Below are positions 10,189 through 46,213 of a stretch of 56,894 bases of DNA, piece after piece (position 1 is the stretch's first letter; every line of letters starts with the position of its first letter). The DNA comes from Candidatus Moraniibacteriota bacterium. GTDB taxonomy: Bacteria; Patescibacteriota; Minisyncoccia; Moranbacterales; UBA1568. Below the pieces are notes generated by a model. It was not told where the DNA came from and searched no databases. It saw only the letters and a list, made by a program, of their open reading frames with translations. The translations under genes and the position numbers were made by a program. The DNA is taken from positions 1 through 56,894 of the forward strand of contig CAINXS010000065.1 in assembly GCA_903854995.1 (NCBI GenBank), given 5' to 3'.

Positions 10189-10262
10189 GGGCGGCTAGCT
10201 CAGTTGGTTAGAGCGCCACATTGACATTGTGGAGGTCACAAGTTCGAATCTTGTGTCGCCCA
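10189..10262 (+). tRNA. tRNA-Val (anticodon GAC)
   Basis: Hand-folded cloverleaf: acceptor GGGCGGC/GTCGCCC, D arm GCTC..GAGC, anticodon stem CCACA/TGTGG with loop TTGACAT, T arm ACAAG-TTCGAAT-CTTGT, discriminator A. CCA is not encoded. Confidence 0.9.
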
Positions 10263-10321
10263 CGAATTTCCGAAATAGCCGCAGAGGGACCGCATCGACA
10301 AATCGCAACCATATACGGTAC

Positions 10322-10351
10322 AAAAAAAAACGGCCATAGGCCGTTTTTTAT
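10322..10351. terminator. Bidirectional intrinsic terminator
   Basis: AAAAAAAAACGGCC-ATA-GGCCGTTTTTTATT lies between tRNA-Val (+) and the convergent minus-strand secreted-protein gene. Confidence 0.75.
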
Positions 10352-10363
10352 TCCCGAATTCGC

Positions 10364-11386
10364 TCAGTTACCAGACAGAATCGGCATCGCCGCACCGGAA
10401 CCGGCAGCATTAAGGTTCACGTTCACCTGTTGCCGCACACCGGACGTATATGCCGCCCCGCGTCCCAACTGCCTGTTCACGACGTCCACCTGACTCATGA
10501 TCTGACTGTCAACGTTCGAAATTTCACGCTGAATCGATGCCTGCACCTTACCGAGGCCGTTCTGTATCAAATTCGTTATCATGCGATTCGCCAGCGTCGT
10601 AATCACCCCTCCGACCAGCTCCGTAGGATTCTGCGCCGCCGCAATCACCTTGTTGCCGATATCCTGAACATCCGCGACCATCTGGCCGATAGTGCTGCCT
10701 GGTAAAATCGTATTACCCGCCTTATCCTGCACTCCTTTATATCCCGACGACGTCGCCTTCAATTGGGCTTCGGTCTGATATTGTGCGTCCGCACCCATCT
10801 TGAACCTCTCGGCACGAAGCGCATACCCCAAGGGGTCGCTTTCTGACGAATACATCGCCGAAATCACCCGTATGTCTCCCGCGTCGACTGACTTGATCGG
10901 ATCCGAACTCAGCTCTCCAAGCAGCGTCGTCGAGCTATTCAAAAGATTCGTATCTAACACATGACGATCGCTGAACTTTTCAAGGTACGACTCGTACGAA
11001 GGACCTCCGGATGCCGATGAAAATCCGCTTGAGCGACCCTTTAAAGTGGCCGATTTGAATCCATCATATGCGAGGAGCGCTTTCTGTCCCGGCTCCTGGT
11101 AGAGGTATGCTCTCCAGTCGGATATGACCAGAGATGCGCTTGTCGATGAACCTCCCACAAGACTCGCAACACGGGTATTCAGCAACGATATGGCAGTCGA
11201 CTTCAGCACGCCAAGAAGCTGGCCTTCTATCTGCTTCTGTATCTTCTCCAGCATCTGTTTCAGAATGGCAGCCTCGAAGTCCTCGCCCCATGCGCCGGCA
11301 TGAACGAACGACGGCATCAGCGTGCAGTACGAAACCGCAATTAGGGCGATCAGCGAGTACAACCGTTTGATTTTCATGCTTTTCAT
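10364..11386 (-). CDS. Hypothetical secreted protein
   Basis: 340 aa with a signal-peptide-like N-terminus (MKSMKIKRLYSLIALIAVSYCTLMPSFVHA). Ser/Gln-rich, with a predicted helical N-terminal part. No family recognised. Confidence 0.55.
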   Translation of the reverse strand: MKSMKIKRLYSLIALIAVSYCTLMPSFVHAGAWGEDFEAAILKQMLEKIQKQIEGQLLGVLKSTAISLLNTRVASLVGGSSTSASLVISDWRAYLYQEPGQKALLAYDGFKSATLKGRSSGFSSASGGPSYESYLEKFSDRHVLDTNLLNSSTTLLGELSSDPIKSVDAGDIRVISAMYSSESDPLGYALRAERFKMGADAQYQTEAQLKATSSGYKGVQDKAGNTILPGSTIGQMVADVQDIGNKVIAAAQNPTELVGGVITTLANRMITNLIQNGLGKVQASIQREISNVDSQIMSQVDVVNRQLGRGAAYTSGVRQQVNVNLNAAGSGAAMPILSGN

Positions 11387-11411
11387 ACGGGCTGCGGATA
11401 TGCGTATCGAA

Positions 11412-12413
11412 CTAAAGATCCAACGGGATGTTCGTTATCTCATACTTGGAAAGCTTCGTCTGCACATCGAGAACGAAACCTCCGACCACGTTCAGCAATC
11501 CCTGAATGCGAGACAGCGACCTAATCGTCTTAATCGGATCGTCTGCCGATGACGCACCAACCTCTTCCTTCATCTGCGAGAGATATGTCACGATTTTCAG
11601 CGCTTTCACATGAGTGTCCAGCATCGCCTCAGGAACCTCGACTTCGTTCACCTGTTCGAGCATTTTCGAACCGCATTCGACGTAGGAATCGATTTTGGAA
11701 AAATCCCCCATCGACACGGCAAGTATGGCCTCATCGGCGAATCCCTCCGATACAACCTTCAATTCGTCCTCCGTTTTGAATTGCTTCGGCGAGTTGCTCG
11801 CAAAAATGTACGAAATGGTCGTAAGATATTCAACTATGTCCTCTCTTATTCGCGCTTCGCGTTTTGACTTCGAAAGCCCGGTGTAGGATTGATCCTTCAT
11901 CTTGATAAGACTCATGTCTATATCCGGAAGAATGATTTCTTCAGAATCTCCGCCGGAAACTTCCTGAACGATACCGTTAAGCTCTTCAAGCGAAACCTCG
12001 GACATGCCGTCCGCGTTAGTTTGAGAGTTTTGAACGATGACTGCCAGTTTTTCCGATACCGCTTCAGTAAGGTTGTCCCCGCCTTTTCCGTTAGCAACAT
12101 TTTCAAATCCGGCACCGACTTCCGGAACTATCTTGTCGCCAGGCGCTTTCTTCAGCGGGTTGTATCCACCTCGCACCTCCACGCCGTCAGCGTATCCATC
12201 TCCATCTGTGTCCTTATTCGACGGGTCGGTCCCATAAAGACGCTCCTCGGCGGTCGTGAGTCCATCCTGATCGGGATCATCAACGATATTTTGCCCGATC
12301 ATCTCCTGCGCGGAAGAAATGAAAAATCTGTAACCGACAAAAAGGAGCACGAACAAAAAAGCGAAGTCCTTTTTGAGACCGCCTTGTGCGTTTTTTCTCA
12401 TCACGTTTCGCAT
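11412..12413 (-). CDS. Hypothetical membrane-anchored or secreted protein with thrombospondin-type-3-like Ca-binding repeats
   Basis: 333 aa. N-terminal TM helix (FAFLFVLLFVGYRFF), then DPDQDGLTTAEERLYGTDPSNKDTDGDGYADGVE (DxDxDG repeats). Confidence 0.55.
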   Translation of the reverse strand: MRNVMRKNAQGGLKKDFAFLFVLLFVGYRFFISSAQEMIGQNIVDDPDQDGLTTAEERLYGTDPSNKDTDGDGYADGVEVRGGYNPLKKAPGDKIVPEVGAGFENVANGKGGDNLTEAVSEKLAVIVQNSQTNADGMSEVSLEELNGIVQEVSGGDSEEIILPDIDMSLIKMKDQSYTGLSKSKREARIREDIVEYLTTISYIFASNSPKQFKTEDELKVVSEGFADEAILAVSMGDFSKIDSYVECGSKMLEQVNEVEVPEAMLDTHVKALKIVTYLSQMKEEVGASSADDPIKTIRSLSRIQGLLNVVGGFVLDVQTKLSKYEITNIPLDL

Positions 12414-12589
12414 AGAAATTTTGTTTTCACTATTGTATCATTTTTTTTGTATCGGTACAATTTTTGTAAAGATTTGATCAGAATGATTCTGCTACGTATT
12501 TCCCTGAAACGTTGAGAATTAATTTCCTTTATATTTGATCGTGTATTTACAGTGCAATATTTGTACATATATGTCAATACTCAAATTAT

Positions 12590-13180
12590 TGTTCCACGTG
12601 GAACAGTGAAACGATTTTTTTTTCTTGTGCGATTTTGGTTCATAATTGATTTGTTACACGTGGAACATTGCTTGATCCGATTGTTGGTTTTTTTGTCACC
12701 TTACGGTTCTGTTTCACGTGGAACATTATATTCACTTAAATTCTCGTGTGCTAACTGTTTCACGTGGAACTTGTGGTTAACGCAATGCTATTATTTTGTC
12801 CATTTTTTTAAATTATTCTTTTCTTAGCTTTCTAATTAAGCATTTATAAATTATCACTATTGAAACATGGTTAGGGTTACTGTTCCACATGGAACAAATT
12901 CATCGAAATTTTAATGTTCCACGTGAAACAACTTATATTTCTTATTACTCATTCTGAATTCCTTCAATTTGTTTCACGTGGAACAGATTGGGTTCCCTTA
13001 AGTAACTTCGACGAATATATTGTTTCACGTGGAACACAGGAAAGCAGGAAATTATGACATATGAGAAACAGTGTTCCACGTGGGACAGCAAACTGAATCG
13101 ACACAGACATTCAAGCCGTTCTAAGTAGAGCAGAAAGCTCGATTAGCAGTATATATTCAAATCGTGTTCCACGTGGAACA
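12590..13180. repeat. Array of 10 parS-like 16-bp palindromes (candidate centromere)
   Basis: Sites: 12590-12605 TGTTCCACGTGGAACA; 12652-12667 TGTTACACGTGGAACA; 12710-12725 TGTTTCACGTGGAACA; 12756-12771 TGTTTCACGTGGAACT; 12881-12896 TGTTCCACATGGAACA; 12915-12930 TGTTCCACGTGAAACA; 12970-12985 TGTTTCACGTGGAACA; 13021-13036 TGTTTCACGTGGAACA; 13072-13087 TGTTCCACGTGGGACA; 13165-13180 TGTTCCACGTGGAACA. They match the canonical ParB site TGTTNCACGTGAAACA at 14-16 of 16 positions. The surrounding 12414-13282 is AT-rich and has no credible ORF. Confidence 0.8.
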
Positions 13181-13209
13181 AATATTGACTTTAGTAACGT
13201 TTCGTGCTG

Positions 13210-13218
13210 TGGTATAAT
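13210..13218 (+). promoter_or_regulatory. Extended -10 promoter element (TGGTATAAT) upstream of tRNA-Ala
   Basis: TGnTATAAT match 65 nt upstream of the tRNA-Ala 5' end. Confidence 0.5.
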
Positions 13219-13282
13219 CTATTGAGATTTAATACCTGTTTGACGCAAAATAGTATTACCTATATCATTTACGTGATGATGC

Positions 13283-13355
13283 GGGCCTGTAGCTTAGTTG
13301 GTAGAGCGCCTCCATGGCATGGAGGAGGTCAGGAGTTCGAGTCTCCTCAGGTCCA
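13283..13355 (+). tRNA. tRNA-Ala (anticodon GGC)
   Basis: Acceptor GGGCCTG/CAGGTCC with the G3:U70 Ala identity pair. Anticodon stem CCTCC/GGAGG with loop ATGGCAT. T arm AGGAG-TTCGAGT-CTCCT. Discriminator A. Confidence 0.9.
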
Positions 13356-13420
13356 CAAGCATATCGAATACACGAAATGACGCTTTCATAAAGCTCATTT
13401 TTCATCAGCGTGCCCATAAT

Positions 13421-13492
13421 GCCTCGATAGCTCAATGGATAGAGCGAATCCGTCCTAAGGATGAGATCTAGGTTCGATTCCTAGTCGGGGCA
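13421..13492 (+). tRNA. tRNA-Arg (anticodon CCT)
   Basis: Acceptor GCCTCGA/TCGGGGC, D arm GCTC-AATGGATA-GAGC, anticodon loop GTCCTAA, T arm CTAGG-TTCGATT-CCTAG, discriminator A. Confidence 0.85.
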
Positions 13493-13610
13493 CATAGAAC
13501 ACATAGCACCCCGAGATGCCGGTTCAGAAAAAGGGGCGCGACGACCACCGGATAACGACCTTTGACAAATACGCCGGATTAAACCACAATGAAATGATTC
13601 ATTCCGAAAC

Positions 13611-13943
13611 ATGTCTCACCGAATACTGCAGATAAACGAACTCATACGCGAGCACCTCGGAGAAATACTTCTCCGCGAAGTGAGTTTTAAGTCTGGAATA
13701 CTGGTAACTATCTCGAAAGTCGACACCACGCCGGACCTGCGCCACTCGCGCGTATCGATCAGCATATTTCCGGAAAGTGAGACGGGGTACGCTATCGGAA
13801 CACTTTCTCATGAAAAGGGGAGGATTCAAAAAGCGCTTCACGGGAAACTTCACATGAAATTCCTTCCCATACTTTCCTTTCGCGCAGATCCGACAGAACA
13901 AAATGCCGACGTAATCGAACGAATCCTCATAGAGCTGAAATAA
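13611..13943 (+). CDS. rbfA: Ribosome-binding factor A
   Basis: 110 aa. INELIREHLGEILLREV...VTISKVDTTPDLRHSRVSISIF is the typical RbfA pattern. Confidence 0.85.
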   Translation: MSHRILQINELIREHLGEILLREVSFKSGILVTISKVDTTPDLRHSRVSISIFPESETGYAIGTLSHEKGRIQKALHGKLHMKFLPILSFRADPTEQNADVIERILIELK

Positions 13944-13970
13944 GGGATTGTTCGAAGTTATACACAGGTT

Positions 13971-14936
13971 ATGCGCGATTACTCATCGGAATTCAGAAAC
14001 CTGAACTACGTAATCCGCAATGCGGACAGGTTTTTGCTGTTTGCGCACACCCGCCCCGATTCCGACACGGTTGGGGCAAATATCGCGCTGCAGGAGTTCA
14101 TCGAAATGCAGGGGAAACAAGCCGACATCTGCTGTGTCGATGCATTTCCGGAATTTGCGAAAGCGCTATTTCCTGGCTCCACCTTCAACGCTCCTTCTGC
14201 GCTCGATTTCACCTCATATGACGCATATATCGCGTCAGACAGCGTCAATCGCGGCTTTAATACCGTTCGTGATCGCATATCTTCGGAAAAGATCGTGGCA
14301 TTGATCGACCATCATCCGATCGAAGATCCTGAAGGGGACATCGTCATCATCGATACCGGCTTCTCTTCCGCGGCCGAAATCGTGTATCAGTTCATAAAGA
14401 GCACCAAAACGAAACTTAGCCATCGAATGGCAACGGCACTGTTACTCGGTATACTCGGAGATACGGGGAATCTTCAACATTCATCCACGACACCCGAAAC
14501 GTTCGCGGCTGCCGCATCTCTCATCCGCAGCGGCGCCCAACTGCCGAAGATTACGACGAGCGTCTTTTCCAACAACTCCATATCCACGCTGAAGCTGTGG
14601 GGCAGGGCGTTATCGCGGGCAAAGATCAACCCGAGCAACGGAATGATATACTCCGCGATAACGGAGAAGGACATCATCGAGCTTGGAAATCCCTCCACGG
14701 AGGATCTGTATATCGCATCGGCACTTCTGAACAATGTGCCCGATGCCAAGTTTTCACTGCTGTTCTATCAGATTTCGCCCGATTCCGTGCGCGGAAGCTT
14801 ACGCACCGAGCCGCATAAGGGAGTCGACGTCTCGAACATCGCACAGTCACTCGGAGGGGGAGGGCACAAGTACGCGAGCGGCTTCGAGATTCCTGGACGA
14901 ATCATAGAGACGGCCGAGGGCTGGGAAGTCCGATAA
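13971..14936 (+). CDS. nrnA: DHH/DHHA1 phosphoesterase (NrnA-type oligoribonuclease / pAp phosphatase)
   Basis: 321 aa with intact motifs: HTRPDSDTVGA (DxD), LIDHHP (DHH), GGGGHKYASG (GGGH). Confidence 0.85.
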   Translation: MRDYSSEFRNLNYVIRNADRFLLFAHTRPDSDTVGANIALQEFIEMQGKQADICCVDAFPEFAKALFPGSTFNAPSALDFTSYDAYIASDSVNRGFNTVRDRISSEKIVALIDHHPIEDPEGDIVIIDTGFSSAAEIVYQFIKSTKTKLSHRMATALLLGILGDTGNLQHSSTTPETFAAAASLIRSGAQLPKITTSVFSNNSISTLKLWGRALSRAKINPSNGMIYSAITEKDIIELGNPSTEDLYIASALLNNVPDAKFSLLFYQISPDSVRGSLRTEPHKGVDVSNIAQSLGGGGHKYASGFEIPGRIIETAEGWEVR

Positions 14937-14956
14937 ATCGTTGTTTTGCACCGGTT

Positions 14957-15559
14957 ATGCACGATCCGATCCGAAACATCAAGGAATCGCTGCTTTCAGA
15001 CCTTAACGAGCGCATGTCGACCGAGTGCACATGCACTTTGAAGGAAACTGCCACGCGGCCGGTCCCGGGAGACGGGTCTGCCTGCGCGACTATCCTTCTT
15101 ATCGGTGAGGCTCCCGGAAAGAACGAAGACCTCCAGGGAGTTCCTTTCGTCGGGGCGGCCGGCAAGTTTCTTGATGAGATGCTCGCTTCCATCGGGCTTG
15201 ATAGAAAGGACATCTATATCACCAATATCGTAAAATACCGCCCACCGGACAATCGTGACCCGCTTCCGCAGGAAATAGAGGACTGCGCCGAGTGGCTTCA
15301 CGAACAGATCGGCATCATAGACCCCTTGCTCATCGTAACGCTCGGTCGGCACGCGATGAACCACTTCTTTCCCGATAAGAAGATAACTGAAGCTCACGGA
15401 AACGCATATCGACGCGAATTTCCCGCGGGCCGTAGCCAGGTGTTCTATACCCTGTATCATCCTGCGGCAGCACTCTACAACGGCGGCATGAGAGATACGT
15501 TGAAACAGGATTTCTTGCGCATCCCCAAGGTACTCGAAAAGTTACGAAGTGGTGCATAA
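14957..15559 (+). CDS. Uracil-DNA glycosylase, family 4
   Basis: 200 aa. LLIGEAPGKNEDLQGVPFVGAAGKFLDEML and the HPAA motif are characteristic of family-4 UDG. Confidence 0.88.
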   Translation: MHDPIRNIKESLLSDLNERMSTECTCTLKETATRPVPGDGSACATILLIGEAPGKNEDLQGVPFVGAAGKFLDEMLASIGLDRKDIYITNIVKYRPPDNRDPLPQEIEDCAEWLHEQIGIIDPLLIVTLGRHAMNHFFPDKKITEAHGNAYRREFPAGRSQVFYTLYHPAAALYNGGMRDTLKQDFLRIPKVLEKLRSGA

Positions 15560-15698
15560 GTCGAGGACAACTCGCAAAATGCCTGATTTCTGCCGTTTTT
15601 GTTGACGCTCTTTGCGGATTCTGGTACCGTGAAAATACTTTCGTCTGTTTTATTCCATCCGAGCAGTCGGCTCAGACGAAAGGTTCGTATACACAGAT

Positions 15699-15769
15699 GG
15701 TCCGATGGCCGAGTGGTTAGGCACGGGTCTGCAAAACCCTTTACGGCGGTTCAATTCCGCCTCGGACCT
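15699..15769 (+). tRNA. tRNA-Cys (anticodon GCA)
   Basis: Acceptor GGTCCGA/TCGGACC, anticodon loop CTGCAAA, T arm GGCGG-TTCAATT-CCGCC, discriminator U73 as expected for Cys. Confidence 0.85.
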
Positions 15770-15828
15770 CACAGAATATCCGTTATAGACGACCTGAAGC
15801 GCGATCGTGGAGATTATTGCAATACATT

Positions 15829-15911
15829 GCCGCGGTGGTGGAACTGGTAGACACAGGAGACTTAAAATCTCCCAGCCAAAAGCTATGCGGGTTCGACTCC
15901 CGCCTGCGGCA
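15829..15911 (+). tRNA. tRNA-Leu (anticodon TAA), class II with long variable arm
   Basis: Acceptor GCCGCGG/CTGCGGC, anticodon stem GGAGA/TCTCC with loop CTTAAAA, long variable arm, T arm GCGGG-TTCGACT-CCCGC. Confidence 0.88.
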
Positions 15912-15976
15912 CTCAAACGATTTATTCGATGATTACTCGTGGCAAAGCGCCCCCCTTGAGATCTCGTACGAAACAG

Positions 15977-18778
15977 ATGGCTTTTCTTCCTTCCGATACC
16001 ACGCGATGTACGGATTTGCGATGCGAATACGCTTCAAACCCGATCGGCATCGATTCAAAGCGACCGCGACTCAGCTGGCGAATGGAATCGTCTCGACGCG
16101 ACACGCGCCAGCAAGCCTACCAGATACGGGTATCCGCATCGAAGAGAGCACTGACGGCAGGGTCTGCGATCGTATGGGACTCGGGCAAAGTCATGTCCGA
16201 CAGATCGACGCACATCACGTATGGAGGACCGCCTCTCGTTTCCAGGCAGGCGTATTATTGGAGCGTCCGAGTGACCGATAATCACGGCGACACTTCGGAT
16301 TGGAGCGATGTCGCCACATGGGAAATGGGACTGTTGCTTACCGAAGACTGGAAAGCCCTTTGGATACAGCCGATCGAATCATCCCGCTCCGGCGACAGGC
16401 CGGCCCAACTCCTGCGAAGTTCGTTCGAAATTCCCGATAAGGAGATCGTTTCTGCGCGATTGTATGTGACGAGTCATGGCACCCATGAAGCCTCTATCAA
16501 CGGGACGACCGTCGGAGAAGACGTCTTCGCGCCTGGCTTCACCAGTTATCACGACCGTCTACAATACAGGACTTGGGACGTCACAAACCTGCTGCATCGG
16601 GGTGAAAACGTCGTCGGCCTGATGATCGGAGACGGTTGGTATCGAGGCAAGCTGACCATCATGTCGCTTCGCGACGTCTATGGAGACGCGCTTGCCGCAC
16701 TCGCCCAAATCAATGTCTCTTTTGTCGACGGAAGTACGCACATATTTTCTACCGGGGCCGATTGGCGGTCATCAACGAGTCCGATACTCAGATCGGACAG
16801 TAAAGACGGCGAAATCTTCGATGCAAGACGATGCCTTGACGGATGGAACTCCGCAGATTTCGACGATGCCGGATGGAAGCCGGTCATGATCGCCGACTTT
16901 GGAACCAAGAATCTTGTCGCTTCCTTATCGCCTCCCGTCAAACGGCATGAACAGATTCGTCCGATACAGCTATTTCGAACTCCTAATGATCAATTGGTCG
17001 CCGACTTCGGCCAAAATCTCGCGGGACGGGTACGAATCAGGGTAAGAGGAGAAAGGGGGACGGTGATGCGACTGCGTCATGGTGAAACGCTCGACGCGAA
17101 CGGTAATTTTTCGATTTCCAATCTTCAGCCGACAGCGCCCGGAGTCGCGCCCTGCCTGCAGGAAGATATATACATCCTGAGGGGCGAAAATGAGGAAACA
17201 TACGAGCCGACTTTCTCGATTCACGGATTCAGATACGTGGAAATCGAAGGGTGGCCGGGCGAACCGTCGGAAGATGACCTTGTCGCAATCGCAATCTATT
17301 CCAATCTTGAACGGACGGGGACATTCGAGTGCTCCGACCCGCGGATTAACCGCCTCCATGAAAACATCGTTTGGAGCATGAAAAGCAATTCCGTCGACAT
17401 TCCGACGGATTGCCCCACCAGAGAGCGGGCGGGGTGGACTGGAGATGTCCAAATTTTCGCGAGTTCGGGTGCGTACCTTATGAACACCGCAGCTTTTCTC
17501 GAAAAATGGCTGCTTGACCTCGCCGCAGACCAAAGATCGAACGGCCTGATTCCGAATACCGTCCCCGATGCGGGCCGATACAAACCATCGGCACTATCGG
17601 AAATCACGGAAGGATCAGCCGGCTGGGGAGATGCTTCCGTCATCGTCCCCTGGACACACTTCCAGTTTTTCGGCGATGTCAACGTACTGGAAAATCAGTA
17701 CGAGAGCATGAAAAAATGGATCGACTTCGGAATAATGCGTTCCAAAAGAGGAAGCCTGGCGAGTAAGATGAACCCTGTGCTTCACATGGATGCCGATCGG
17801 CTGCATCGGCAGCCGTATATACTGAACAGCGGCTACCATTGGGAAGAGTGGCTCGCGCCCGGAGAAAGGAAAAAGACGTCGTGGAATATGGCGAGGAATG
17901 TCCTCACTAATAGAAAATCCGAATCAATGGTTGCAACGGCATACTTGGCGCATTCGACAGATCTCCTCGTTCGAATCGCGCGGATCTTAGGCAGGCATGA
18001 TGATTGCGACAAGTATGCCGCCATCAATGACAATATACGGAACGCCTTTGTCGAAGAATTCACCAGCGACGAATTGCTTGATCCGGATACCCAATCGGCA
18101 TATGTTCGAGCACTTGCATTTGATCTTCTTCCGGAACGCGTACGCCTTCGCGCCGCAGAACGGCTCGTCGAGTTGATAAAGGAAAAAGGGTGCCATCTGG
18201 ACACCGGATTCCTTTCAACTCCGTTCATCTGTCCGGTCCTCGACAGATACGGATATGCCGACCTTGCCTATGAACTCCTATTGCAGGACTCGTATCCCTC
18301 CTGGCTCTATGCCATCGGTAAAGGAGCGACAACCGTTTGGGAGAGCTGGGATGCGATCGATGAATCCGGAAATGTCCACGGATCTCTCAACCACACGGCT
18401 TTCGGATCGATCGCATATTTTCTTTATCAATCGGTCGCAGGCATATCGCCCGATCCGGATAAGCCGGGCTTTCAGCATTTCATTCTTCAGCCGAATCCGA
18501 ATGATAGACTTACGTATGCCGCAGCGACATACCGATCTTTACACGGAACAATAGCTTCCCGTTGGGAAATCAGCGAAAATCAGTTCACGTATCGCGTCAG
18601 CATACCGCCGAACACTTCCGCGACGGTAATATTGCCGACAAAAAATGCTGACATGATAACCGAAGGCGGCAAACCCATTCTGCAACACGATGAAATCCGC
18701 GTCCTCAGCAGTGAGCCGGATGATGTAACATTACGTGTCGGATCCGGCCATTATGTTTTTGACGCGAAGGCCGCGTGA
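15977..18778 (+). CDS. Alpha-L-rhamnosidase (GH78 family)
   Basis: The ORF is open from 15929. The ATG at 15977 gives MAFLPSDTTRCTDLRCEYASNPIGIDSKRPRLSWRM, the typical GH78 N-terminal signature. At ~930 aa it has the architecture of bacterial rhamnosidases (N-terminal beta-sandwich domains plus an (alpha/alpha)6 catalytic domain motif, WESWD). Confidence 0.85.
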   Translation: MAFLPSDTTRCTDLRCEYASNPIGIDSKRPRLSWRMESSRRDTRQQAYQIRVSASKRALTAGSAIVWDSGKVMSDRSTHITYGGPPLVSRQAYYWSVRVTDNHGDTSDWSDVATWEMGLLLTEDWKALWIQPIESSRSGDRPAQLLRSSFEIPDKEIVSARLYVTSHGTHEASINGTTVGEDVFAPGFTSYHDRLQYRTWDVTNLLHRGENVVGLMIGDGWYRGKLTIMSLRDVYGDALAALAQINVSFVDGSTHIFSTGADWRSSTSPILRSDSKDGEIFDARRCLDGWNSADFDDAGWKPVMIADFGTKNLVASLSPPVKRHEQIRPIQLFRTPNDQLVADFGQNLAGRVRIRVRGERGTVMRLRHGETLDANGNFSISNLQPTAPGVAPCLQEDIYILRGENEETYEPTFSIHGFRYVEIEGWPGEPSEDDLVAIAIYSNLERTGTFECSDPRINRLHENIVWSMKSNSVDIPTDCPTRERAGWTGDVQIFASSGAYLMNTAAFLEKWLLDLAADQRSNGLIPNTVPDAGRYKPSALSEITEGSAGWGDASVIVPWTHFQFFGDVNVLENQYESMKKWIDFGIMRSKRGSLASKMNPVLHMDADRLHRQPYILNSGYHWEEWLAPGERKKTSWNMARNVLTNRKSESMVATAYLAHSTDLLVRIARILGRHDDCDKYAAINDNIRNAFVEEFTSDELLDPDTQSAYVRALAFDLLPERVRLRAAERLVELIKEKGCHLDTGFLSTPFICPVLDRYGYADLAYELLLQDSYPSWLYAIGKGATTVWESWDAIDESGNVHGSLNHTAFGSIAYFLYQSVAGISPDPDKPGFQHFILQPNPNDRLTYAAATYRSLHGTIASRWEISENQFTYRVSIPPNTSATVILPTKNADMITEGGKPILQHDEIRVLSSEPDDVTLRVGSGHYVFDAKAA

Positions 18779-18859
18779 TACGGATTTGAGACTGTCAGGC
18801 GGTCATGCCAAATCGCAAGAAGATTCTGGCCGGACTTTCATGATTTCGTTTTTGTCACC

Positions 18860-18887
18860 AAAACGCCCCGATTGCTCGGGGCGTTTT
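18860..18887. terminator. Bidirectional intrinsic terminator
   Basis: AAAACGCCCCG-ATTGCT-CGGGGCGTTTT lies between the convergent rhamnosidase and 3D-domain genes. Confidence 0.8.
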
Positions 18888-18901
18888 CAGTCTTATCCTG
18901 A

Positions 18902-19480
18902 TCAGTCGGTAACCACCTCCGCTATCATGTTGCGACGTCCGAAGGCGAACGCCTCTTTCTTCGTTTCCATGTAGACATCGAAATGGTTTCCCTTGATGGC
19001 ACCTCCTCGGTCCTCGCATCGGAATGTACCGAATCCCTCGATTGCGATCTTGGCGCCGAACGGGTAGGCCGGGGGACATGCCAGCGTCCTGTTGGCAGCA
19101 ACCTTGAGTCCCGAGGCCGTTATGCCTCTGGAATTTCCGCATTCATCTGCCGAGGCGGTATATGCGGACGCGTTGATCTCGAATTTCCCTTCCGGGAGAC
19201 CGCTCCAACGTTCGATCTGCTTTTCTTTCCAGCGCTCGAGGATGATGTCCTCCGTACTTTTCACCCCTTCGTCCTTCGACATCGAATTGCTTGTCGAAAG
19301 TGTTGAGCGTATCCCCTCAAGTGAGAACGGATTTCGCCCAATCACGCTTTTGTTAGTCGCGGTACTTCTGAATATCTCGTAATGAACGTCAACCGCTTGA
19401 ACAATCGACGTTTCGGCATGCGCGGCGTTCGTCCAGAACAGGATAACAGGAAGGACGAACGCCAGACGTTTACCACTCAT
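18902..19480 (-). CDS. 3D-domain (RlpA/MltA-like double-psi beta-barrel) cell-wall protein
   Basis: C-terminus ASAYTASADECGNSRGITASGLKV...FRCEDRGGAIKGNHFDVYMETKKEAFAFG matches the 3D domain. The ORF is open to 19546, but the ATG at 19480 gives the signal-peptide start MSGKRLAFVLPVILFWTNAAHA. Confidence 0.75.
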   Translation of the reverse strand: MSGKRLAFVLPVILFWTNAAHAETSIVQAVDVHYEIFRSTATNKSVIGRNPFSLEGIRSTLSTSNSMSKDEGVKSTEDIILERWKEKQIERWSGLPEGKFEINASAYTASADECGNSRGITASGLKVAANRTLACPPAYPFGAKIAIEGFGTFRCEDRGGAIKGNHFDVYMETKKEAFAFGRRNMIAEVVTD

Positions 19481-19648
19481 ATCGTAAGTATAGTGCTTAT
19501 CCAAGCCCTCCAGCTTGAGTAACGACCAAATCTGCCTCAGTCGCAACGGTACAATATAGCATACTTATAAGATGCTGTCAATACTTCTTTGACGAAAGTC
19601 ATGCTACACCATCATCAGATGCATCTTCAACGCAAACAGGAGTCGACC

Positions 19649-19798
19649 ATGCCGAACGTTTACATATGCCGAAAACTGCGCGTTATCACAGGCCGCGGTG
19701 GACGCACGTTTAAAAAGGCAGGCCTTTACAAGCAGCGAGGCCGCGCCCTGAGAAAATTTCGGCGCGCACGCCGCCTCGGACACGGTCCGAAGCGGTAA
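19649..19798 (+). CDS. Small, very basic hypothetical protein (49 aa)
   Basis: ATG at 19649 is preceded by AGGAG with 6-nt spacing. Product MPNVYICRKLRVITGRGGRTFKKAGLYKQRGRALRKFRRARRLGHGPKR. A hairpin follows at ~19804-19832. No family assignment possible. Confidence 0.35.
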   Translation: MPNVYICRKLRVITGRGGRTFKKAGLYKQRGRALRKFRRARRLGHGPKR

Positions 19799-19890
19799 GA
19801 GACGAAAAGCCCGGGCTATTGCACGGACTTTTCTTATCGAAATTGCAAGAACAAAAAAGAGGACCCGAATAGATCCTCTTTTTTGCTTTC

Positions 19891-20035
19891 TTGAGCGGGT
19901 AACGGGAGTCTCGTCCTCAGCGCCTGCTGGCGCTTCGTAGTCCAGGGCTGAGCCGAATGCTGCACTTGCTTGCATTCGTCTACACTCGTTTTGCTCGCCT
20001 TCGCTCACAACTCGTTCCTGCCCGTTCGACTCCCG
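19891..20035 (-). repeat. tRNA-Gly 3'-end-derived element 2 (inverted tRNA-fragment termini)
   Basis: 19891-19910 TTGAGCGGGTAACGGGAGTC is identical to the 3' end plus flank of the real tRNA-Gly gene (20290-20309). 20022-20035 CCGTTCGACTCCCG is the same T-arm segment in the opposite orientation. CGGGAGTC/GACTCCCG close a ~130-nt GC-rich segment. Confidence 0.7.
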
Positions 20036-20127
20036 ATATATACAAAGAAAACACTTTGAAAGGTGCTTCTTTGTGAGCGGGCCGCCCCATATTAGGGCGA
20101 GCCTCGCTCAAATTTTCGAAGAAAATT

Positions 20128-20245
20128 TGAGCGGGTAACGGGAGTCCTCCTCACCCGTCCTGCACAAGCAGGACTCCTTCGGAGCCGGGGTTTCTGAAAA
20201 GCGAAATCGTTCGCTTTTCAGAATACCCTTCGACTCCCGTTACCC
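20128..20245 (-). repeat. tRNA-Gly 3'-end-derived element 1 (14-bp closing helix plus three internal hairpins)
   Basis: 20128-20146 TGAGCGGGTAACGGGAGTC equals the tRNA-Gly 3' end. 20229-20245 TTCGACTCCCGTTACCC is the inverted copy. GGGTAACGGGAGTC (20133-20146) pairs perfectly with GACTCCCGTTACCC (20232-20245). Internal hairpins: 20157-20174, about 20171-20186, and a perfect 13-bp stem 20193-20205/20210-20222. Confidence 0.75.
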
Positions 20246-20292
20246 ATAAGAAAGAAGAAGAGGCTCATATGAGCCCCTTCTTCTTTCCTTTG

Positions 20293-20364
20293 AGCGGGTA
20301 ACGGGAGTCGAACCCGTATTTCGTCCTTGGCAAGGACGCGTAATAGCCGCTATACGATACCCGC
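20293..20364 (-). tRNA. tRNA-Gly (anticodon GCC)
   Basis: Reverse complement folds: acceptor GCGGGTA/TACCCGC, anticodon stem CGTCC/GGACG with loop TTGCCAA, T arm ACGGG-TTCGACT-CCCGT, discriminator U. Confidence 0.9.
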
Positions 20365-20417
20365 CTGCGCTACGCTCCGGCGTGGCAAGCCCGCTTTTAA
20401 CCGATCTTCACCGCCTG

Positions 20418-20490
20418 TGGGACTGGCTGGATTCGAACCAGCGACCAAGCGGTTATGAGCCGCCTGCTCTAACCGCTGAGCTACAGTCCC
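20418..20490 (-). tRNA. tRNA with CAT anticodon (elongator Met, or Ile2 after lysidine modification)
   Basis: Acceptor GGGACTG/CAGTCCC (G1:C72, so not an initiator), anticodon stem GGCGG/CCGCT with loop CTCATAA, T arm GCTGG-TTCGAAT-CCAGC. Confidence 0.85.
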
Positions 20491-20543
20491 GGCCGGAACA
20501 TGGCTATAAATGGTATTATACACCACTTATACACATTTTCCTG

Positions 20544-20615
20544 TGCCTGGGGACAGAATCGAACTGTCGACACGAGGATTTTCAGTCCTCTGCTCTACCA
20601 CTGAGCTACCCAGGC
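20544..20615 (-). tRNA. tRNA-Phe (anticodon GAA)
   Basis: Acceptor GCCTGGG/CCCAGGC, anticodon stem GAGGA/TCCTC with loop CTGAAAA, T arm GACAG-TTCGATT-CTGTC. Confidence 0.9.
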
Positions 20616-20765
20616 GAAACACAAATATGAGTGTACAAGACTTTGCCCGACCCGTAAATACCCCGGCCGATTGCCTGTGGGCAATGGAGGACTCGCCCGG
20701 CATTCGCCAGGCGCCCCGCGTATGCGGGACGAACCCGACTTCATTTCATAATCACATCTTCTCCG

Positions 20766-20839
20766 TGCGCGCTCAAGGATTCGAACCTTGGACCCCCTCG
20801 GTGTAAACGAGGTGCTCTAACCAACTGAGCTAAGCGCGC
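20766..20839 (-). tRNA. tRNA-Val (anticodon TAC)
   Basis: Acceptor GCGCGCT/AGCGCGC, anticodon stem CCTCG/CGAGG with loop TTTACAC, T arm CAAGG-TTCGAAT-CCTTG. Confidence 0.9.
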
Positions 20840-20856
20840 AAATATCCGATACCATA

Positions 20857-20902
20857 CCCTCGGTGTAAACGAGATGCTCTAACCCGTTTGAGCTAAGCGT
20901 GC
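20857..20902 (-). pseudogene. Truncated tRNA-Val(TAC) copy (acceptor 5' strand, D arm and anticodon arm only; no T arm)
   Basis: GCACGCTTAGCTCAAACGGGTTAGAGCATCTCGTTTACACCGAGGG parallels the first ~46 nt of the adjacent intact tRNA-Val(TAC), then diverges (GTATGGTATCGG...). Confidence 0.75.
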
Positions 20903-20950
20903 CTTGATTTCCACGCCTCTCAAGTATAGGGCACGGAATCCAAATGGCAA

Positions 20951-20976
20951 GCAAAAGGAACAGGCCGTCCTGTTCC
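20951..20976 (-). terminator. Intrinsic terminator ending the minus-strand tRNA-Leu unit
   Basis: On the minus strand, GGAACAGG-ACGG-CCTGTTCC is followed by TTTTGC. Confidence 0.75.
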
Positions 20977-21006
20977 TTCGTTCCGTTGTGCCCAAGAGAG
21001 GACTCG
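20976..21006 (-). repeat. 31-nt direct duplicate of the tRNA-Leu(GAG) 3' end plus downstream flank
   Basis: CTTCGTTCCGTTGTGCCCAAGAGAGGACTCG at 20976-21006 is identical to 21116-21146 (the latter is part of, or flanks, the intact tRNA). Confidence 0.9.
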
Positions 21007-21128
21007 GTCAGAGTCGATTTCCGGAGAAATCGCTCCCGACCCTGCCTCGCTCCGCTCCGGCTTTCTCGTCCTCACACAAGCCAAACCATTGGCTTGTTTC
21101 TTCGTCCCAACTCCACTTCGTTCCGTTG

Positions 21129-21212
21129 TGCCCAAGAGAGGACTCGAACCTCCAATCCCTTGCGGGAACTAGCACCTCAAGCTAGCGCGTATACCAATTC
21201 CGCCACCTGGGC
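21129..21212 (-). tRNA. tRNA-Leu (anticodon GAG), class II
   Basis: Acceptor GCCCAGG/CTTGGGC, anticodon stem CTAGC/GCTAG with loop TTGAGGT, long variable arm TTCCCGCAAGGGATT, T arm GGAGG-TTCGAGT-CCTCT. Confidence 0.88.
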
Positions 21213-24275: not shown

Positions 24276-25199
24276 ATGCGAATCATAAAACGGAAGTATA
24301 CGTGGATGTTTCTTGTCCCGCTTTTTCTTTTCATCTTCCTCCCGAATCCGTCATTCGCGGCGGACGGATTCACTTACACGCCACTTGAGCCGATTCCCGG
24401 ATCGGAAGACGCCGCGAAACTACCGGAATACATCACGGCCATCTACAAGTTCGCATTGTGGGCCGTCGGCATCGCCGCCATGTTCATGATAACCATCGGC
24501 GGCGCCATGTATCTCACGAGCGCAGGAAACACGTCGGCACTCGGAAACGCGAAAGGCGTCATCACCGATGCCATCATCGGCCTCGTGCTCGCTCTCGCGG
24601 CCTGGTTTCTGCTCAATCTCATCAATCCGGACATCCTCAGCGGAGACTTGTCGATATTCAGCATCGTCGGAGGCGACACGCCCTCTACCGTGGGCGGCGG
24701 CACCGGAACCGACACGGGAACAACCGCCCTGACGACTTCCGGCGGCGCCTGTACCGGAGCGAATTCGGGTTGCTGCAAAGCCGGAACGAAATGCGCGGAC
24801 TGCCAAGGATGCGTCAGTTTCACGAACTCGTACGCAAATCTTTGCTATAAAGGCGCTATGGGCAACACCGGATGCATGTTGAGTTCGACCTTAGCCAGCA
24901 AGCTCAACGCTGCGAACCTTGACAGTGTCAATGCCGAGGTTTCGGAGGCATGGCCGCCCACTGTTATTCATTCCGAACCTTGCCACGCGAACGGCACGTG
25001 CGCTGACGTCAGGTGCAAGAGCGGCTGCGCGAACGCGAGCGTGGCCAGTATCAAAGCAATCTATGACGCGCTGAAAAAAGCCGGACTGAATCCCGTGTTT
25101 GAAAGCTATGCCGCGAATTGTCCGACATACACCGCGGCAGGAATAACATGTATATCTCCGTCGACTATGACGGCCCCGTCATTTCACGTCAATCCGTAG
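24276..25199 (+). CDS. VirB2/TrbC-like (T4SS-pilin-type) two-TM domain fused to a Cys-rich C-terminal domain
   Basis: Signal peptide ...PNPSFA. Then PLEPIPG...ITAIYKFALWAVGIAAMFMITIGGAMYLTSAGN...AKGVITDAIIGLVLALAAWFLLNLINP, a hairpin of two TM helices as in VirB2/TrbC-type pilins common in CPR genomes. The last ~170 aa contain 12 Cys. Confidence 0.6.
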   Translation: MRIIKRKYTWMFLVPLFLFIFLPNPSFAADGFTYTPLEPIPGSEDAAKLPEYITAIYKFALWAVGIAAMFMITIGGAMYLTSAGNTSALGNAKGVITDAIIGLVLALAAWFLLNLINPDILSGDLSIFSIVGGDTPSTVGGGTGTDTGTTALTTSGGACTGANSGCCKAGTKCADCQGCVSFTNSYANLCYKGAMGNTGCMLSSTLASKLNAANLDSVNAEVSEAWPPTVIHSEPCHANGTCADVRCKSGCANASVASIKAIYDALKKAGLNPVFESYAANCPTYTAAGITCISPSTMTAPSFHVNP

Positions 25200-34006: not shown

Positions 34007-34261
34007 ATTGGTGGAGGAAGAAATACTTAAAACGCACTCCCATGAGTCACTCACTAGGATATGACACCTTCGGACATATGTCAATTCCCACCCGAACCAA
34101 AGACTCATATCTACGACGTAGGAACCGCAACACCAGGAATCCGAAAACTACAAAATGGGCGATTCTTCAGTTTCGGTAACGTTTTATTGTTTTAAATATA
34201 GGATAATCTCAGGTTATCCACCGGATGTACACTGCGAGAGATGACCACTGTACGACCTGCG

Positions 34262-34270: not shown

Positions 34271-34284
34271 CGGATTTGTCACGT

Positions 34285-35727
34285 ATGGAACATCAGGAAC
34301 TCTGGAAATCGGTACTCGGTCAGATAGAGCTTTCGATATCGAAGGCTAATTTCGTGACGTGGTTTCAGGGAACGGCGATCGTCTCAGTCGAAGACGGTAC
34401 CGCCATAATCAGCGTCCCAAACGGATTCGCAAAAGAATGGCTTGAAAACAAGTACAATCATACGATCATTCAGGCATTGCGAGGCTTCGATGAGACGATA
34501 CGGTCCATACGATGCATCATTTCCGGCCCTCAACCGATCAAGAAATCGTTCGATGCGGTAGTACAACCCGGAAGTCAGGCGACCATGAAGCCTGATGTCC
34601 AAAGTCAGCAGCGCACGAATTCCAATACGCAGACCACTCGCCCCGCAGGCGGATTCATTCAAACGGCGCCGAAACAGGCCACCGCGATGTTCCATGAATC
34701 GAATCTCAATCCGCGTTATACTTTCGCGGACTATATCGTTGCCGAAAACAACGAACTCGCCAACGCGGCATGTGTAGCCGTCTCCAGGAACCTCGGACAG
34801 ATTTACAACCCTCTCTTCATATACGGAGGAGTGGGGCTCGGTAAGACGCATCTCCTCCAGGCTCTCGGCAACGAGGTGAAACGTGAACATCCGGAGAAAA
34901 ACATCAAATATATCACCTCGGAACGATTCACAAGCGAACTCGTGGACTCGATAAAGAACCAGAGAACGGACAAATTCAAGGAATACTATCAGCAGATGGA
35001 CCTCCTTATCATCGACGACGTACAGTTTCTTTCCGGCAGGGAGAAGACGCAGAACGAATTCTTTCACATCTTTAACGCGCTTTACCAGATCAATAAGCAG
35101 ATCGTCATCTCGAGCGATCGGCCGCCTAAGGCGATTCCGACGCTCGAAGACCGACTCCGATCAAGGTTCGAGGGCGGCATGATAACGGATATCAGCCAGC
35201 CGAACGAGGAAACACGACTGGCAATCCTTAGAAAAAAGGTTACGGAGAAAGGCATCTCCATAGAAGAGGACGCCCTCCGCTTCATAGCGGAGAATATCAC
35301 GCAGAATATCAGGGAAATCGAAGGAGCATTGAATCGCGTGATCGCCTATTCGGAATTCTATAAGACAGCGCCATCGATTTCGCTCGTGGAAAAAGTGCTT
35401 TCCCAACTCATCATCCAAAACAAAAAGAATATTCAGACGAAAGACATCGTCGCCGCGGTCGAGAAACTGTATTCCGTCTCGGAAGAAGACCTCCTGAAAA
35501 AAGGACGCAAGAAGGGGATCTCGAATGCGCGACAAGTCGCCATGTATCTCATGCGCACGGAACTGAATATGCCTTTCTCCTCCATCGGTGACTTTTTCGG
35601 GGGCAGGGATCATACCACCGCTCTCCATGCATTTGAAAAAGTCAGTGGCGAGATCGAGAAGAACCTCCGGCTCAAAGGAGAGCTTTCCACCTTAAAGAAC
35701 GAACTCTATCAATCGAACGGTGCATAA
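34285..35727 (+). CDS. dnaA: Chromosomal replication initiator DnaA
   Basis: MEHQELWKSVLGQIE..., Walker A GGVGLGKTHLLQALG, LLIIDDVQFL, and the C-terminal DNA-binding helix FGGRDHTTALHAFEKV. A TTG at 34276 is an alternative start. Confidence 0.97.
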   Translation: MEHQELWKSVLGQIELSISKANFVTWFQGTAIVSVEDGTAIISVPNGFAKEWLENKYNHTIIQALRGFDETIRSIRCIISGPQPIKKSFDAVVQPGSQATMKPDVQSQQRTNSNTQTTRPAGGFIQTAPKQATAMFHESNLNPRYTFADYIVAENNELANAACVAVSRNLGQIYNPLFIYGGVGLGKTHLLQALGNEVKREHPEKNIKYITSERFTSELVDSIKNQRTDKFKEYYQQMDLLIIDDVQFLSGREKTQNEFFHIFNALYQINKQIVISSDRPPKAIPTLEDRLRSRFEGGMITDISQPNEETRLAILRKKVTEKGISIEEDALRFIAENITQNIREIEGALNRVIAYSEFYKTAPSISLVEKVLSQLIIQNKKNIQTKDIVAAVEKLYSVSEEDLLKKGRKKGISNARQVAMYLMRTELNMPFSSIGDFFGGRDHTTALHAFEKVSGEIEKNLRLKGELSTLKNELYQSNGA

Positions 35728-36014
35728 AGAGTGTATAAGTTCCATTTTTAACCGAATAGATGGTGGAAAAGTCGGGTACTTATCAACGTATGAAATGGGA
35801 GATGTAAGTTTTCCACAACAAGAAGCGACTCTCCGTATAAGTCGCGACAGATAGAGACAGACATATTTCAGCAACAGAAAAGCTAAAATCCGACCTATCC
35901 ACATTTCCACCACGCTAATAATCATAATAGTATACATAATATATATAATACTATTCATTACAGCACCGAAGACCATGTCGACATCCGAATACTAATCAGC
36001 AGATCGAAATACCT
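35728..36014. other. Candidate oriC (dnaA-dnaN intergenic): DnaA-box-like 9-mers plus AT-rich unwinding region
   Basis: TTTTCCACA at 35809-35817, CTATCCACA at 35895-35903 followed by TTTCCACC, TTTTCCACC on the minus strand at 35761-35769, and a very AT-rich tract at about 35916-35965 (CTAATAATCATAATAGTATACATAATATATATAATACTATTCATTA). Confidence 0.6.
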
Positions 36015-37166
36015 ATGAAAGTCACCTGTACTCAAGAAAATCTTTCCAAAGCCCTCTCTTTTTTAGAAAGAGCTACCGGAAAGCAGACTGCATTGCCTAT
36101 CCTCAGCAATTTTCTAATCCGGGTTGAAAAGGGAAAACTGAAGCTCTCATCTACGAATCTTGAGATCGGCGTCACCACCTACGTGAACGCGAAGATAGAG
36201 GGTGCGGGGGAGATAGCTGCTCCCGTGAAAATCATTTCCAACTTCGTCGGTAATCTGCCGAGTGGTGAGGTTGTTGTCATAGACGTCCAAGGAAGCGCCA
36301 TATCCCTTGAAAGCGGGGGATATGATATGAGGGTCAGGGGTCTGGATCCGAAGGATTTTCCGATCATACCGGAGAAAAAAGGGGAAACGTCGTTTCATCT
36401 TCCCGCACAGGCGTTGAAATCAGCTCTCCAGAGGATACTGCCATGCGTTTCAATGAATGAGAGTCGGCTTGAGCTGACAGGCGTCAATATGCTCTTCTTA
36501 GACGATGAGGTGCATATAGCCGCCACAGACAGCTTCAGACTCGCGGAACAGGTCCTGAGGCTTCCTGATGGTGCTTCCGGTGAAGGCTACGACTTGTTCC
36601 GGAGTCAGAATTCGTCGCTCATCCTGCCTCACATCACGATGCAGGAATTAGCCCGCATCATTTCGCCCGAAACCGAAACCGTCGCCGTGACCTTTGAGGA
36701 AAATCAGGTCTTCTTCGATATTGACGGCGTGTCGGTGGTTTCGCGTATTATCAATGGAAAATATCCCGACTACAAACAAATATTGCCGAAGGAGTTCGCG
36801 TATGCGGCGAAACTGTCCCGGGAGGAGTTGCTTCGGGCGGTCAGGATGGCGGGCGTATTCGCGTCGCAAATGAGCGGGGAGATGCTCGTTTCGGTATCTC
36901 CGGACAGCGGTGAGGTGCTGGTCGCGGCTCGATCGTCGGAGGTGGGGGAGAATCGGACGGTCATTCATGGTGAGATTTCCGGAGGTGAGCCTGTACAGAT
37001 CCTTTTCAATCCTCGTTATGTCATCGATGGCTTGAATGCGATTTCCACGGATTCCGTCTATTTTCTCCTGAATTCGCCATCCTCGCCGGCCGGATTTCGA
37101 ATGATAGGCTCCGATGGGGTTATTGACCAGGATTATCTCTATATCGCCATGCCGATCAGGAAATAG
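36015..37166 (+). CDS. dnaN: DNA polymerase III beta sliding clamp
   Basis: 383 aa. MKVTCTQENLSKALSFLERATGKQTALPILSNFLI and a three-domain clamp layout. Position after dnaA. Confidence 0.95.
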   Translation: MKVTCTQENLSKALSFLERATGKQTALPILSNFLIRVEKGKLKLSSTNLEIGVTTYVNAKIEGAGEIAAPVKIISNFVGNLPSGEVVVIDVQGSAISLESGGYDMRVRGLDPKDFPIIPEKKGETSFHLPAQALKSALQRILPCVSMNESRLELTGVNMLFLDDEVHIAATDSFRLAEQVLRLPDGASGEGYDLFRSQNSSLILPHITMQELARIISPETETVAVTFEENQVFFDIDGVSVVSRIINGKYPDYKQILPKEFAYAAKLSREELLRAVRMAGVFASQMSGEMLVSVSPDSGEVLVAARSSEVGENRTVIHGEISGGEPVQILFNPRYVIDGLNAISTDSVYFLLNSPSSPAGFRMIGSDGVIDQDYLYIAMPIRK

Positions 37167-43126: not shown

Positions 43127-43133
43127 AAGGATT

Positions 43134-45484: not shown

Positions 45485-45488
45485 ACGA

Positions 45489-46145: not shown

Positions 46146-46213
46146 AGTGGCGATGTTACAATGATTCGTATCTTGGTATCTCCGTCGGGACGCGATATCG
46201 TGACGACTTCTGC

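Follow-up and report, generated by a model that had tools for sequence, protein, structure and literature searches.

A compact array of ten parS sites near dnaA as the probable chromosomal centromere of a Candidatus Moranbacteria bacterium

Chromosomal ParABS systems such as those of Spo0J, Caulobacter, Thermus, Myxococcus and Corynebacterium use a 16-bp parS site with the consensus TGTTNCACGTGAAACA that is located in the proximity of the origin. Multiple near-origin sites are a feature of these model species, where the regions they occupy range from kilobases to hundreds of kilobases and the sites are often intragenic; C. glutamicum has 10 parS sites within about 35 kb and Caulobacter 7 within about 10 kb, and in M. 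xanthus about 24 sites extend across tens of kilobases. In plasmid centromeres of the sopC type, many ParB-type sites of plasmid-specific sequence are iterated as regular tandem repeats within a few hundred base pairs, next to their own parAB genes (sopAB), and form one point-like partition complex for which the copy number of the sites is uncritical. The sopC of the F plasmid consists of 12 repeats of 43 bp. The number of parS sites per chromosome ranges from 1 to about 23, and why this number varies and what drives parS clustering are open questions (PMC7333895). Here we analyzed a 56,894-bp stretch of Candidatus Moranbacteria DNA (hereafter the window), which corresponds to the right end (57 kb) of a metagenomic contig of 98.5 kb and in which ten parS sites are packed into an AT-rich non-coding island about 21 kb from dnaA and the probable replication origin (oriC). 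We consider it very probable that this island, with its compact ten-parS array, is the chromosomal centromere of a Candidatus Moranbacteria bacterium.

The array (12590..13180, 591 bp) resembles the model chromosomal systems in the sequence of its 16-bp inverted repeat, which fits TGTTNCACGTGAAACA, and in its origin-proximal position. Unlike in the model species, all ten sites fall within 591 bp of non-coding DNA, about one site per 60 bp, in a dedicated AT-rich region that is not near parAB. We searched the window for TGTTNCACGTGNAACA, tolerating at most two mismatches, and obtained ten matches, seven exact and three with one mismatch, and zero matches in the remainder of the window. The chance expectation from dinucleotide-preserving shuffles of the window was a mean of 0.08 matches with a maximum of 1. 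The initial annotation had listed exactly these ten palindromes, and its nine irregular start-to-start spacings (62, 58, 46, 125, 34, 55, 51, 51 and 93 bp) were all reproduced by recomputation.

The individual sites are close variants of one another. parS 1 (12590..12605) and parS 10 (13165..13180) both read TGTTCCACGTGGAACA and are the only perfect palindromes, where three had been claimed. parS 6 (12915..12930) is TGTTCCACGTGAAACA, the canonical ParB/Spo0J site that had been recognized from the outset, and parS 3 (12710..12725), parS 7 (12970..12985) and parS 8 (13021..13036), all TGTTTCACGTGGAACA, are its exact reverse complement. parS 2 (12652..12667) reads TGTTACACGTGGAACA. The sites with one mismatch are parS 4 (12756..12771; TGTTTCACGTGGAACT, ending in AACT), parS 5 (12881..12896; TGTTCCACATGGAACA, with CACATG) and parS 9 (13072..13087; TGTTCCACGTGGGACA, with GGGACA); the initial annotation had assigned one or two changes to the imperfect sites, and the single changes are there whereas no site has two. 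parS 7 through parS 10 were assigned by the motif scan together with a comparison to the close relative L204 described below. Noc binding sites (NBS, ATTTCCCGGGAAAT), which are scattered and lie away from the terminus, were considered and rejected, as the sites read as parS with the CACGTG core and form one cluster.

When the ten copies were aligned, the information content was 1.6 bits per position in the 16-bp cores compared with 0.16 in the 14-bp flanks. Tandem Repeats Finder detected no tandem repeat unit in 12400-13300, and a repeat search of the array recovered the site cores alone, with spacers that are mutually unrelated. These two results rule out a tandem-repeat origin of the window's array. 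Because there is no tandem unit, each site appears to be kept up on its own, and because the spacers are unrelated to one another, the copies appear to be old and individually preserved. The same ten sites were found in five independently assembled contigs from different samples (L001, L002, L003, L006 and L007), therefore the array is not an assembly artefact.

Comparison with the close relative L204/L205 (contigs of 250,839 and 62,586 bp) separates the sites from their surroundings. The island is 92% identical between the two organisms and all ten sites are retained position for position. In L204, parS 1 differs at the degenerate position 12 only, parS 2 and parS 3 are unchanged, parS 4 and parS 5 have the same variants as in the window, and the sole change at a consensus position is in parS 6, which becomes TGTTTCACGCGAAACA. 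Within the array, a single one of the 140 consensus positions differs between L204 and the window, as do 2 of the 20 degenerate and 44 of the 413 spacer positions (Fisher p = 2.4e-5). The consensus positions thus evolve more than 10 times slower than the spacers between close relatives. The rarity of consensus changes relative to spacer changes is direct evidence for purifying selection on each site.

Six further relatives, beyond L204/L205, carry arrays at the same syntenic locus. In relatives whose NrnA proteins are 75-79% identical to that of the window, the array has 6 sites in L131, 4 degenerate sites in L133, 6 sites in L134, 7 perfect sites in L135 and 14 sites in L151, always between the TSP3-repeat gene and tRNA-Ala/tRNA-Arg-rbfA-nrnA-udg. 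The comparison of orthologous loci that the initial annotation had recommended shows a position that is kept while the number of sites ranges between 4 and 14. In L135, a 157-bp unit is present in 2.1 copies of 100% identity, and L151 has a 33-bp periodic stretch. Since both are recent tandem duplications, the site number changes via local tandem duplication. In the more distant L087 (GTDB Moraniibacteriota, GC content 0.35, NrnA 41% identical), the order udg-nrnA-rbfA-tRNA-Arg(CCT) is followed by three perfect parS sites at the contig end, which suggests that the location of the array is old, or has been re-used.

Canonical ParA and ParB proteins are also encoded in the lineage. The locus of a distant relative, L150, includes a ParB, which was used to seed protein searches. 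Three seeded searches returned thousands of ParB homologues with PF02195, PF17762 and PF23552, many of which are labelled Candidatus Moranbacteria or Moraniibacteriota. Candidates were chosen by amino-acid composition and by the count and sources of their contigs, and the last seed by tetranucleotide similarity of the loci. A canonical ParB is present at all nine inspected Moranbacteria-type loci, with parA adjoining in eight; at the ninth, L150, the sequence breaks off where the locus ends. For the seven candidates that were looked up, parA directly precedes parB in all seven and folD lies directly upstream of parA in six; in L206, folD is found a few genes upstream of parA. P0118 matches B. 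subtilis Spo0J (6sdk, E = 5e-54), M. xanthus ParB, T. thermophilus Spo0J and Caulobacter ParB.

The lineage ParBs resemble the model chromosomal ParBs in their N-terminal and helix-turn-helix (HTH) domains, in which they are about 45-50% identical to Spo0J, and in their cytidine triphosphate (CTP)-binding GERRxRAA motif. They contain an N-terminal LGRGL motif (ParA activation), GERRFQAA (CTP binding) and a KSRSxVAN-xRLL recognition helix, whose arginine we take to be typical of a parS-binding ParB and not of Noc. With up to two mismatches allowed, no parS was found in the 10 kb around parAB at the five scanned ParB loci (L150 and L168-L171), except for one two-mismatch site 8 kb away. Because these loci are without parS, the sites would sit elsewhere in those genomes; in the Moranbacteria lineage parS appears not to be at parAB, which fits a detached array. 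In the window itself, Pfam and NCBIfam searches on about 50 open reading frames (ORFs) and tblastn with Spo0J and Soj seeds found no ParA or ParB domains, in agreement with the initial annotation.

The position of the array relative to the origin can be read from the rest of the window. The window is chromosomal, since gyrA, ftsH, dnaA, dnaN and ten tRNA genes are on the contig. Other genes are an S1-domain gene (ribosomal protein S1-like), gmk, tilS, rbfA, yidC and ruvABC, together with genes for an NrnA-like DHH phosphoesterase, a family-4 uracil-DNA glycosylase and a class A penicillin-binding protein (PBP). Proteins that cluster with the DnaN and NrnA of the window at 90% identity or above are labelled Candidatus Moranbacteria bacterium, which assigns the organism to the candidate phyla radiation/Patescibacteria. 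dnaA starts at 34276, 21.1 kb to the right of the array, in line with the distance of about 21 kb given earlier, and dnaA and dnaN (34276..37166, + strand) serve as the reference point for a probable oriC 21-23 kb from the array. Apart from the island, the dnaA-dnaN spacer (35728-36014), with a GC content of 0.37, is the one stretch between genes in the window that is strongly AT-rich. DnaA-box-like 9-mers are located at 35809 and 35895 in this spacer and at 34214 upstream of dnaA. One DnaA-box-like match with one mismatch falls in the island versus three around dnaA, and the relaxed DnaA-box pattern TTWTNCACA has no match in the island. A GC-skew analysis had been suggested as a way to place the origin, and the cumulative skew, computed for the window only, reaches its minimum and turns at about 35-36 kb, at dnaA. 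Since the DnaA-box-like sites, the AT-rich spacer and the skew turn are all there, dnaA is the most likely place of the origin, and the array lies close to the origin without forming part of it.

The array is held in an 869-bp non-coding island (12414..13282) between a TSP3-repeat gene on the minus strand and tRNA-Ala on the plus strand. The GC content of the island is 0.33, or 0.30 without the sites, as compared with 0.46-0.50 in most other intergenic stretches and about 0.53 in the whole window, making it the most AT-rich intergenic region of the window. No credible ORF was found inside 12414-13282, and the description of an ORF-free, AT-rich island of about 870 bp therefore stands. Gene finders call a 47-codon ORF at 12914-13057, over sites 6-8, which is spurious, as a 4-bp indel breaks it in L204, where it is not called; another frame, of 208 codons (11889-12515), runs antisense to the TSP3-repeat gene. 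No Rfam family matches the island, tRNAs being the only Rfam matches.

On the left, the TSP3-repeat protein gene (11412..12413, - strand) is a conserved neighbor that is transcribed away from the array. On the right, tRNA-Ala(GGC) and tRNA-Arg(CCT) (13283..13493, + strand) are the neighbors of the array in all relatives and begin a transcription unit that continues with rbfA, nrnA and udg and from which the left unit diverges. A promoter-like TTGACG-17 bp-TATCAT element lies just upstream of tRNA-Ala at the right island boundary (13240..13268, + strand); this assignment is a consensus match alone, and the element is conserved in L204. A second candidate promoter, TTGACT...TATAAT directly after site 10, was ruled out by its 22-bp spacer.

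How unusual is such a density of parS sites? We surveyed GTDB species, each represented by a single genome, for three perfect parS sites separated by 18-48 bp and obtained at least 120 loci; the window organism's own genome is outside those listed. The taxa among the loci listed include Collinsella (dozens), Lachnospiraceae and other Clostridia, Bacilli, Acidobacteriota, Flavobacteriia, Burkholderiales, Planctomycetota, Verrucomicrobia, Treponema and the candidate phyla radiation (CPR). Many phyla thus have triple-parS clusters, and to describe chromosomal parS as normally single and scattered was too strong. parA or parB lies within 1.5 kb at 71 of the 120 loci listed, with the cluster usually just upstream of parA. 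This recurrence of the same palindrome directly upstream of parAB in other phyla ties the palindrome to ParB. The scanned Moranbacteria ParB loci, without parS at parAB, are unlike most other phyla in the survey.

The parAB-upstream clusters (Collinsella, Lachnospiraceae, Acidobacteriota, Cupriavidus) share with the Moranbacteria array the palindrome and the intergenic location, but they consist of 3-4 copies in about 100-150 bp at the parA promoter, whereas the Moranbacteria array is detached and three times larger. In Collinsella (dozens), many Clostridia, Acidobacteriota and Burkholderiales, 3-4 parS sites are found in about 100 bp directly upstream of parA-parB (for example, L013 2083-2176; L013-L130), and such a promoter-proximal parS triplet suggests autoregulation in addition to centromere function. 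Seventeen IMG/VR viral contigs (L207-L223) have three perfect chromosomal-type parS sites in about 150 bp. Phage-plasmids, the borders of prophages and misclassified pieces of chromosome are possible identities of these contigs.

The number of sites per 600 bp in the 120 loci listed was three in 92, four in 12, five in six, six in four, seven in one, eight in four and ten in one. Five of the six arrays with at least seven sites among these loci are away from parAB, in housekeeping contexts. The dense arrays most like that of the window have 8-10 parS sites in 0.4-0.8 kb of non-coding DNA with AT-rich spacers and housekeeping neighbors (L051 5384-5894; L083 3560-4023; L049 1473-1906; L024 7008-7813; L124 7232-7956), and no parAB was found within the 8-kb locus of any of these five. 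L051 and L083, from low-GC Bacilli, are strictly regular tandem arrays of 55 and 64 bp between gyrA and dnaX. The array of L024 (Parcubacteria) adjoins gyrA/S1/tilS and that of L049, a complete Paceibacterota chromosome, is upstream of tRNA genes; because both arrays are higher-order repeats, their expansion appears to be recent. The spacers of dense arrays are 12-27 GC points below their own locus, except for one low-GC Bacilli array that is only 3 below. No two sites in any dense array are less than 33 bp apart, start to start. The window's array thus marks the upper end of the range seen here, without being unique. Fully diverged spacers set it apart from the other large arrays, and it looks like an old array that is held by selection on each site. 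We found no literature on ParB/parS in CPR bacteria or on chromosomal arrays this dense, within an incomplete coverage of the literature.

The initial annotation had called the array plasmid-style. It is like a sopC-type centromere in its dense iteration, with many ParB-type sites in a few hundred base pairs, and in the expectation of a single point-like partition complex that tolerates changes in copy number. The rest of the comparison did not hold. The spacing is irregular (34-125 bp) with no tandem unit, the sites have the chromosomal parS sequence, the context is housekeeping and not an extrachromosomal replicon, and parAB is elsewhere instead of adjoining.

If the array functions as a centromere, the steps can be proposed from the established ParABS model. 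ParB dimers of the lineage would recognize each 16-bp palindrome via the helix-turn-helix, bind CTP, close as clamps and slide into the flanking DNA. Ten loading sites in 600 bp would multiply the loading rate and give rise to one dense ParB-DNA partition complex at a single chromosomal point. ParA would then move this complex; the LGRGL motif of the lineage ParBs is of the ParA-stimulating type and parA adjoins parB in 8 of 9 loci. The complex would probably load SMC as well. Over evolutionary time, the sites are selected singly, the spacers drift toward AT-richness, and the number of sites shifts by local duplication and loss within the range of 4-14. A dedicated high-density ParB loading platform near the origin had been proposed initially, and the canonical sites, selection, synteny and the ParA-ParB pair of the lineage all support this proposal. 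The array is almost certainly a compact ParB loading pad, an unusual layout of a well-known system and not a new system.

Three other explanations were weighed against a centromere. The array could be a transcriptional operator or silencer through which ParB or another helix-turn-helix protein acts on the promoters of the TSP3 gene and of tRNA-Ala/Arg-rbfA. Plasmid KorB and the autoregulation of ParB at parAB promoters are regulatory precedents, the array fills the divergent promoter region and ends about 60 bp before the promoter-like site of tRNA-Ala, and the frequent clusters within 1.5 kb of parA or parB, usually upstream of parA (71 of the 120 loci listed), are compatible with autoregulation. 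In the window, however, the genes flanking the array are not parAB, and ten sites over 600 bp far exceed the needs of an operator. With a fixed position and 4-14 sites, the array is easier to understand as a loading platform that tolerates dosage changes than as a tuned operator, and ParB spreading barely affects transcription in the model species studied. The initial annotation had pointed to recurrence of the palindrome at promoters genome-wide as the mark of some other function; the motif is absent at other promoters in the 57 kb scanned. We regard an operator as unlikely.

An involvement in replication initiation, as part of the origin or as an accessory replication element that combines an unwinding region with palindromes for an initiator or regulator, is less probable still. 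It was raised initially because of the AT-rich context, and indeed no other intergenic region of the window is as AT-rich as the island (GC 0.33), which belongs to the origin-proximal part of the chromosome. Yet it has one weak DnaA-box-like match, whereas the DnaA-box-like sites, the second AT-rich spacer and the GC-skew turn are all at dnaA-dnaN, leaving this role unsupported. AT-rich spacers were seen in every dense parS array of unrelated taxa, thus AT-richness is a property of arrays and not of an origin. We give equally little credence to a neutral or selfish repeat, either a minisatellite-like expansion or a remnant plasmid or phage centromere with no current function. Recent tandem duplications do occur in relatives (L135, 157-bp unit, 2.1 copies, 100%), and triple parS is present on 17 IMG/VR viral contigs. 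Such a repeat is hard to reconcile with consensus positions that change more than 10 times less than spacers (p = 2e-5), with unrelated spacers that mark the window's copies as old and individually preserved, and with housekeeping flanks, conserved synteny and the lack of mobile-element genes.

The reading of the island as a chromosomal centromere has its own difficulties. About 57-98 kb of the genome is visible, so there may be parS sites or clusters elsewhere. Neither the window nor the adjoining 10 kb on the left, where the genes are TrmB, S15, NYN and PNPase, yielded the parA and parB genes of this genome, and the contigs end to the right of the window. Seven ParB candidates were ruled out as this genome's ParB, all being from other samples or organisms; the search for parA and parB that the initial annotation had called for thus located a canonical pair in the lineage but not this genome's own pair. 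Binding of ParB at the array is predicted from the established ParABS model. A single parS usually suffices in model organisms, and a benefit of having ten is a conjecture. In relatives with 45-50% identical NrnA, parS is absent out to 8 kb from the orthologous gene; these relatives are also without tRNA genes at the locus, so synteny is broken there.

Several features of the window outside the array are worth recording. The array is surrounded by ten tRNA genes in a stretch of 11 kb (10189-21212). The GC content of the genome, about 0.53, is high for CPR/Patescibacteria; related Moranbacteria loci range from 0.27 to 0.54. An alpha-L-rhamnosidase gene with GH78-type domains (15929-18778, + strand) directly follows tRNA-Cys/tRNA-Leu(TAA). 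At the same spot in L204/L205 and L131 the tRNAs are followed directly by a 3D-domain gene, and L133 has a different insert of about 4.4 kb; the spot looks like a strain-variable insertion hotspot next to tRNA genes in a CPR genome. A 1008-aa protein (50310-53336, - strand) is a tandem fusion of two T2SSE (PilB/GspE-type) ATPase domains with an MshEN domain, and a T4SS-pilin-like protein is encoded at 24276-25199. A cluster at 40975-46262 (- strand) encodes a RimK-like ATP-grasp protein, a Mur-ligase-like protein, a second ATP-grasp protein, an ATPgrasp_ST/Zn-protease-like fusion and a 7TM_transglut membrane protein, and constitutes a peptide-ligase-type module.

What is new here is the architecture, a dense array with diverged spacers that is detached from parAB; the parS sequence and the ParABS system are already known. 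The known mechanism is unchanged, and the range of centromere layouts becomes wider than the textbook picture. In practical terms, a 600-bp natural cassette of ten parS sites could serve, together with its cognate ParB, as a compact DNA-labelling tag. The locus also offers an early look at the chromosome-segregation hardware of CPR/Patescibacteria. With 4-14 sites, selection on the sites and drift in the spacers, it forms together with its orthologues a natural experiment on why parS number and clustering vary. It is possible, though we hold it as a tentative and rather doubtful generalization, that dense arrays detached from parAB (8-14 sites in less than 1 kb with AT-rich spacers) are a recurrent architecture of ultra-small bacteria with reduced genomes, for example CPR/Patescibacteria and small low-GC Bacilli. 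If this is true, a single many-site "point centromere" would replace the dispersed parS zone of model bacteria in these organisms and could compensate for a very low ParB copy number per cell, and the fast turnover by duplication would provide a natural series of 4, 6, 7, 10 and 14 sites at one orthologous locus.

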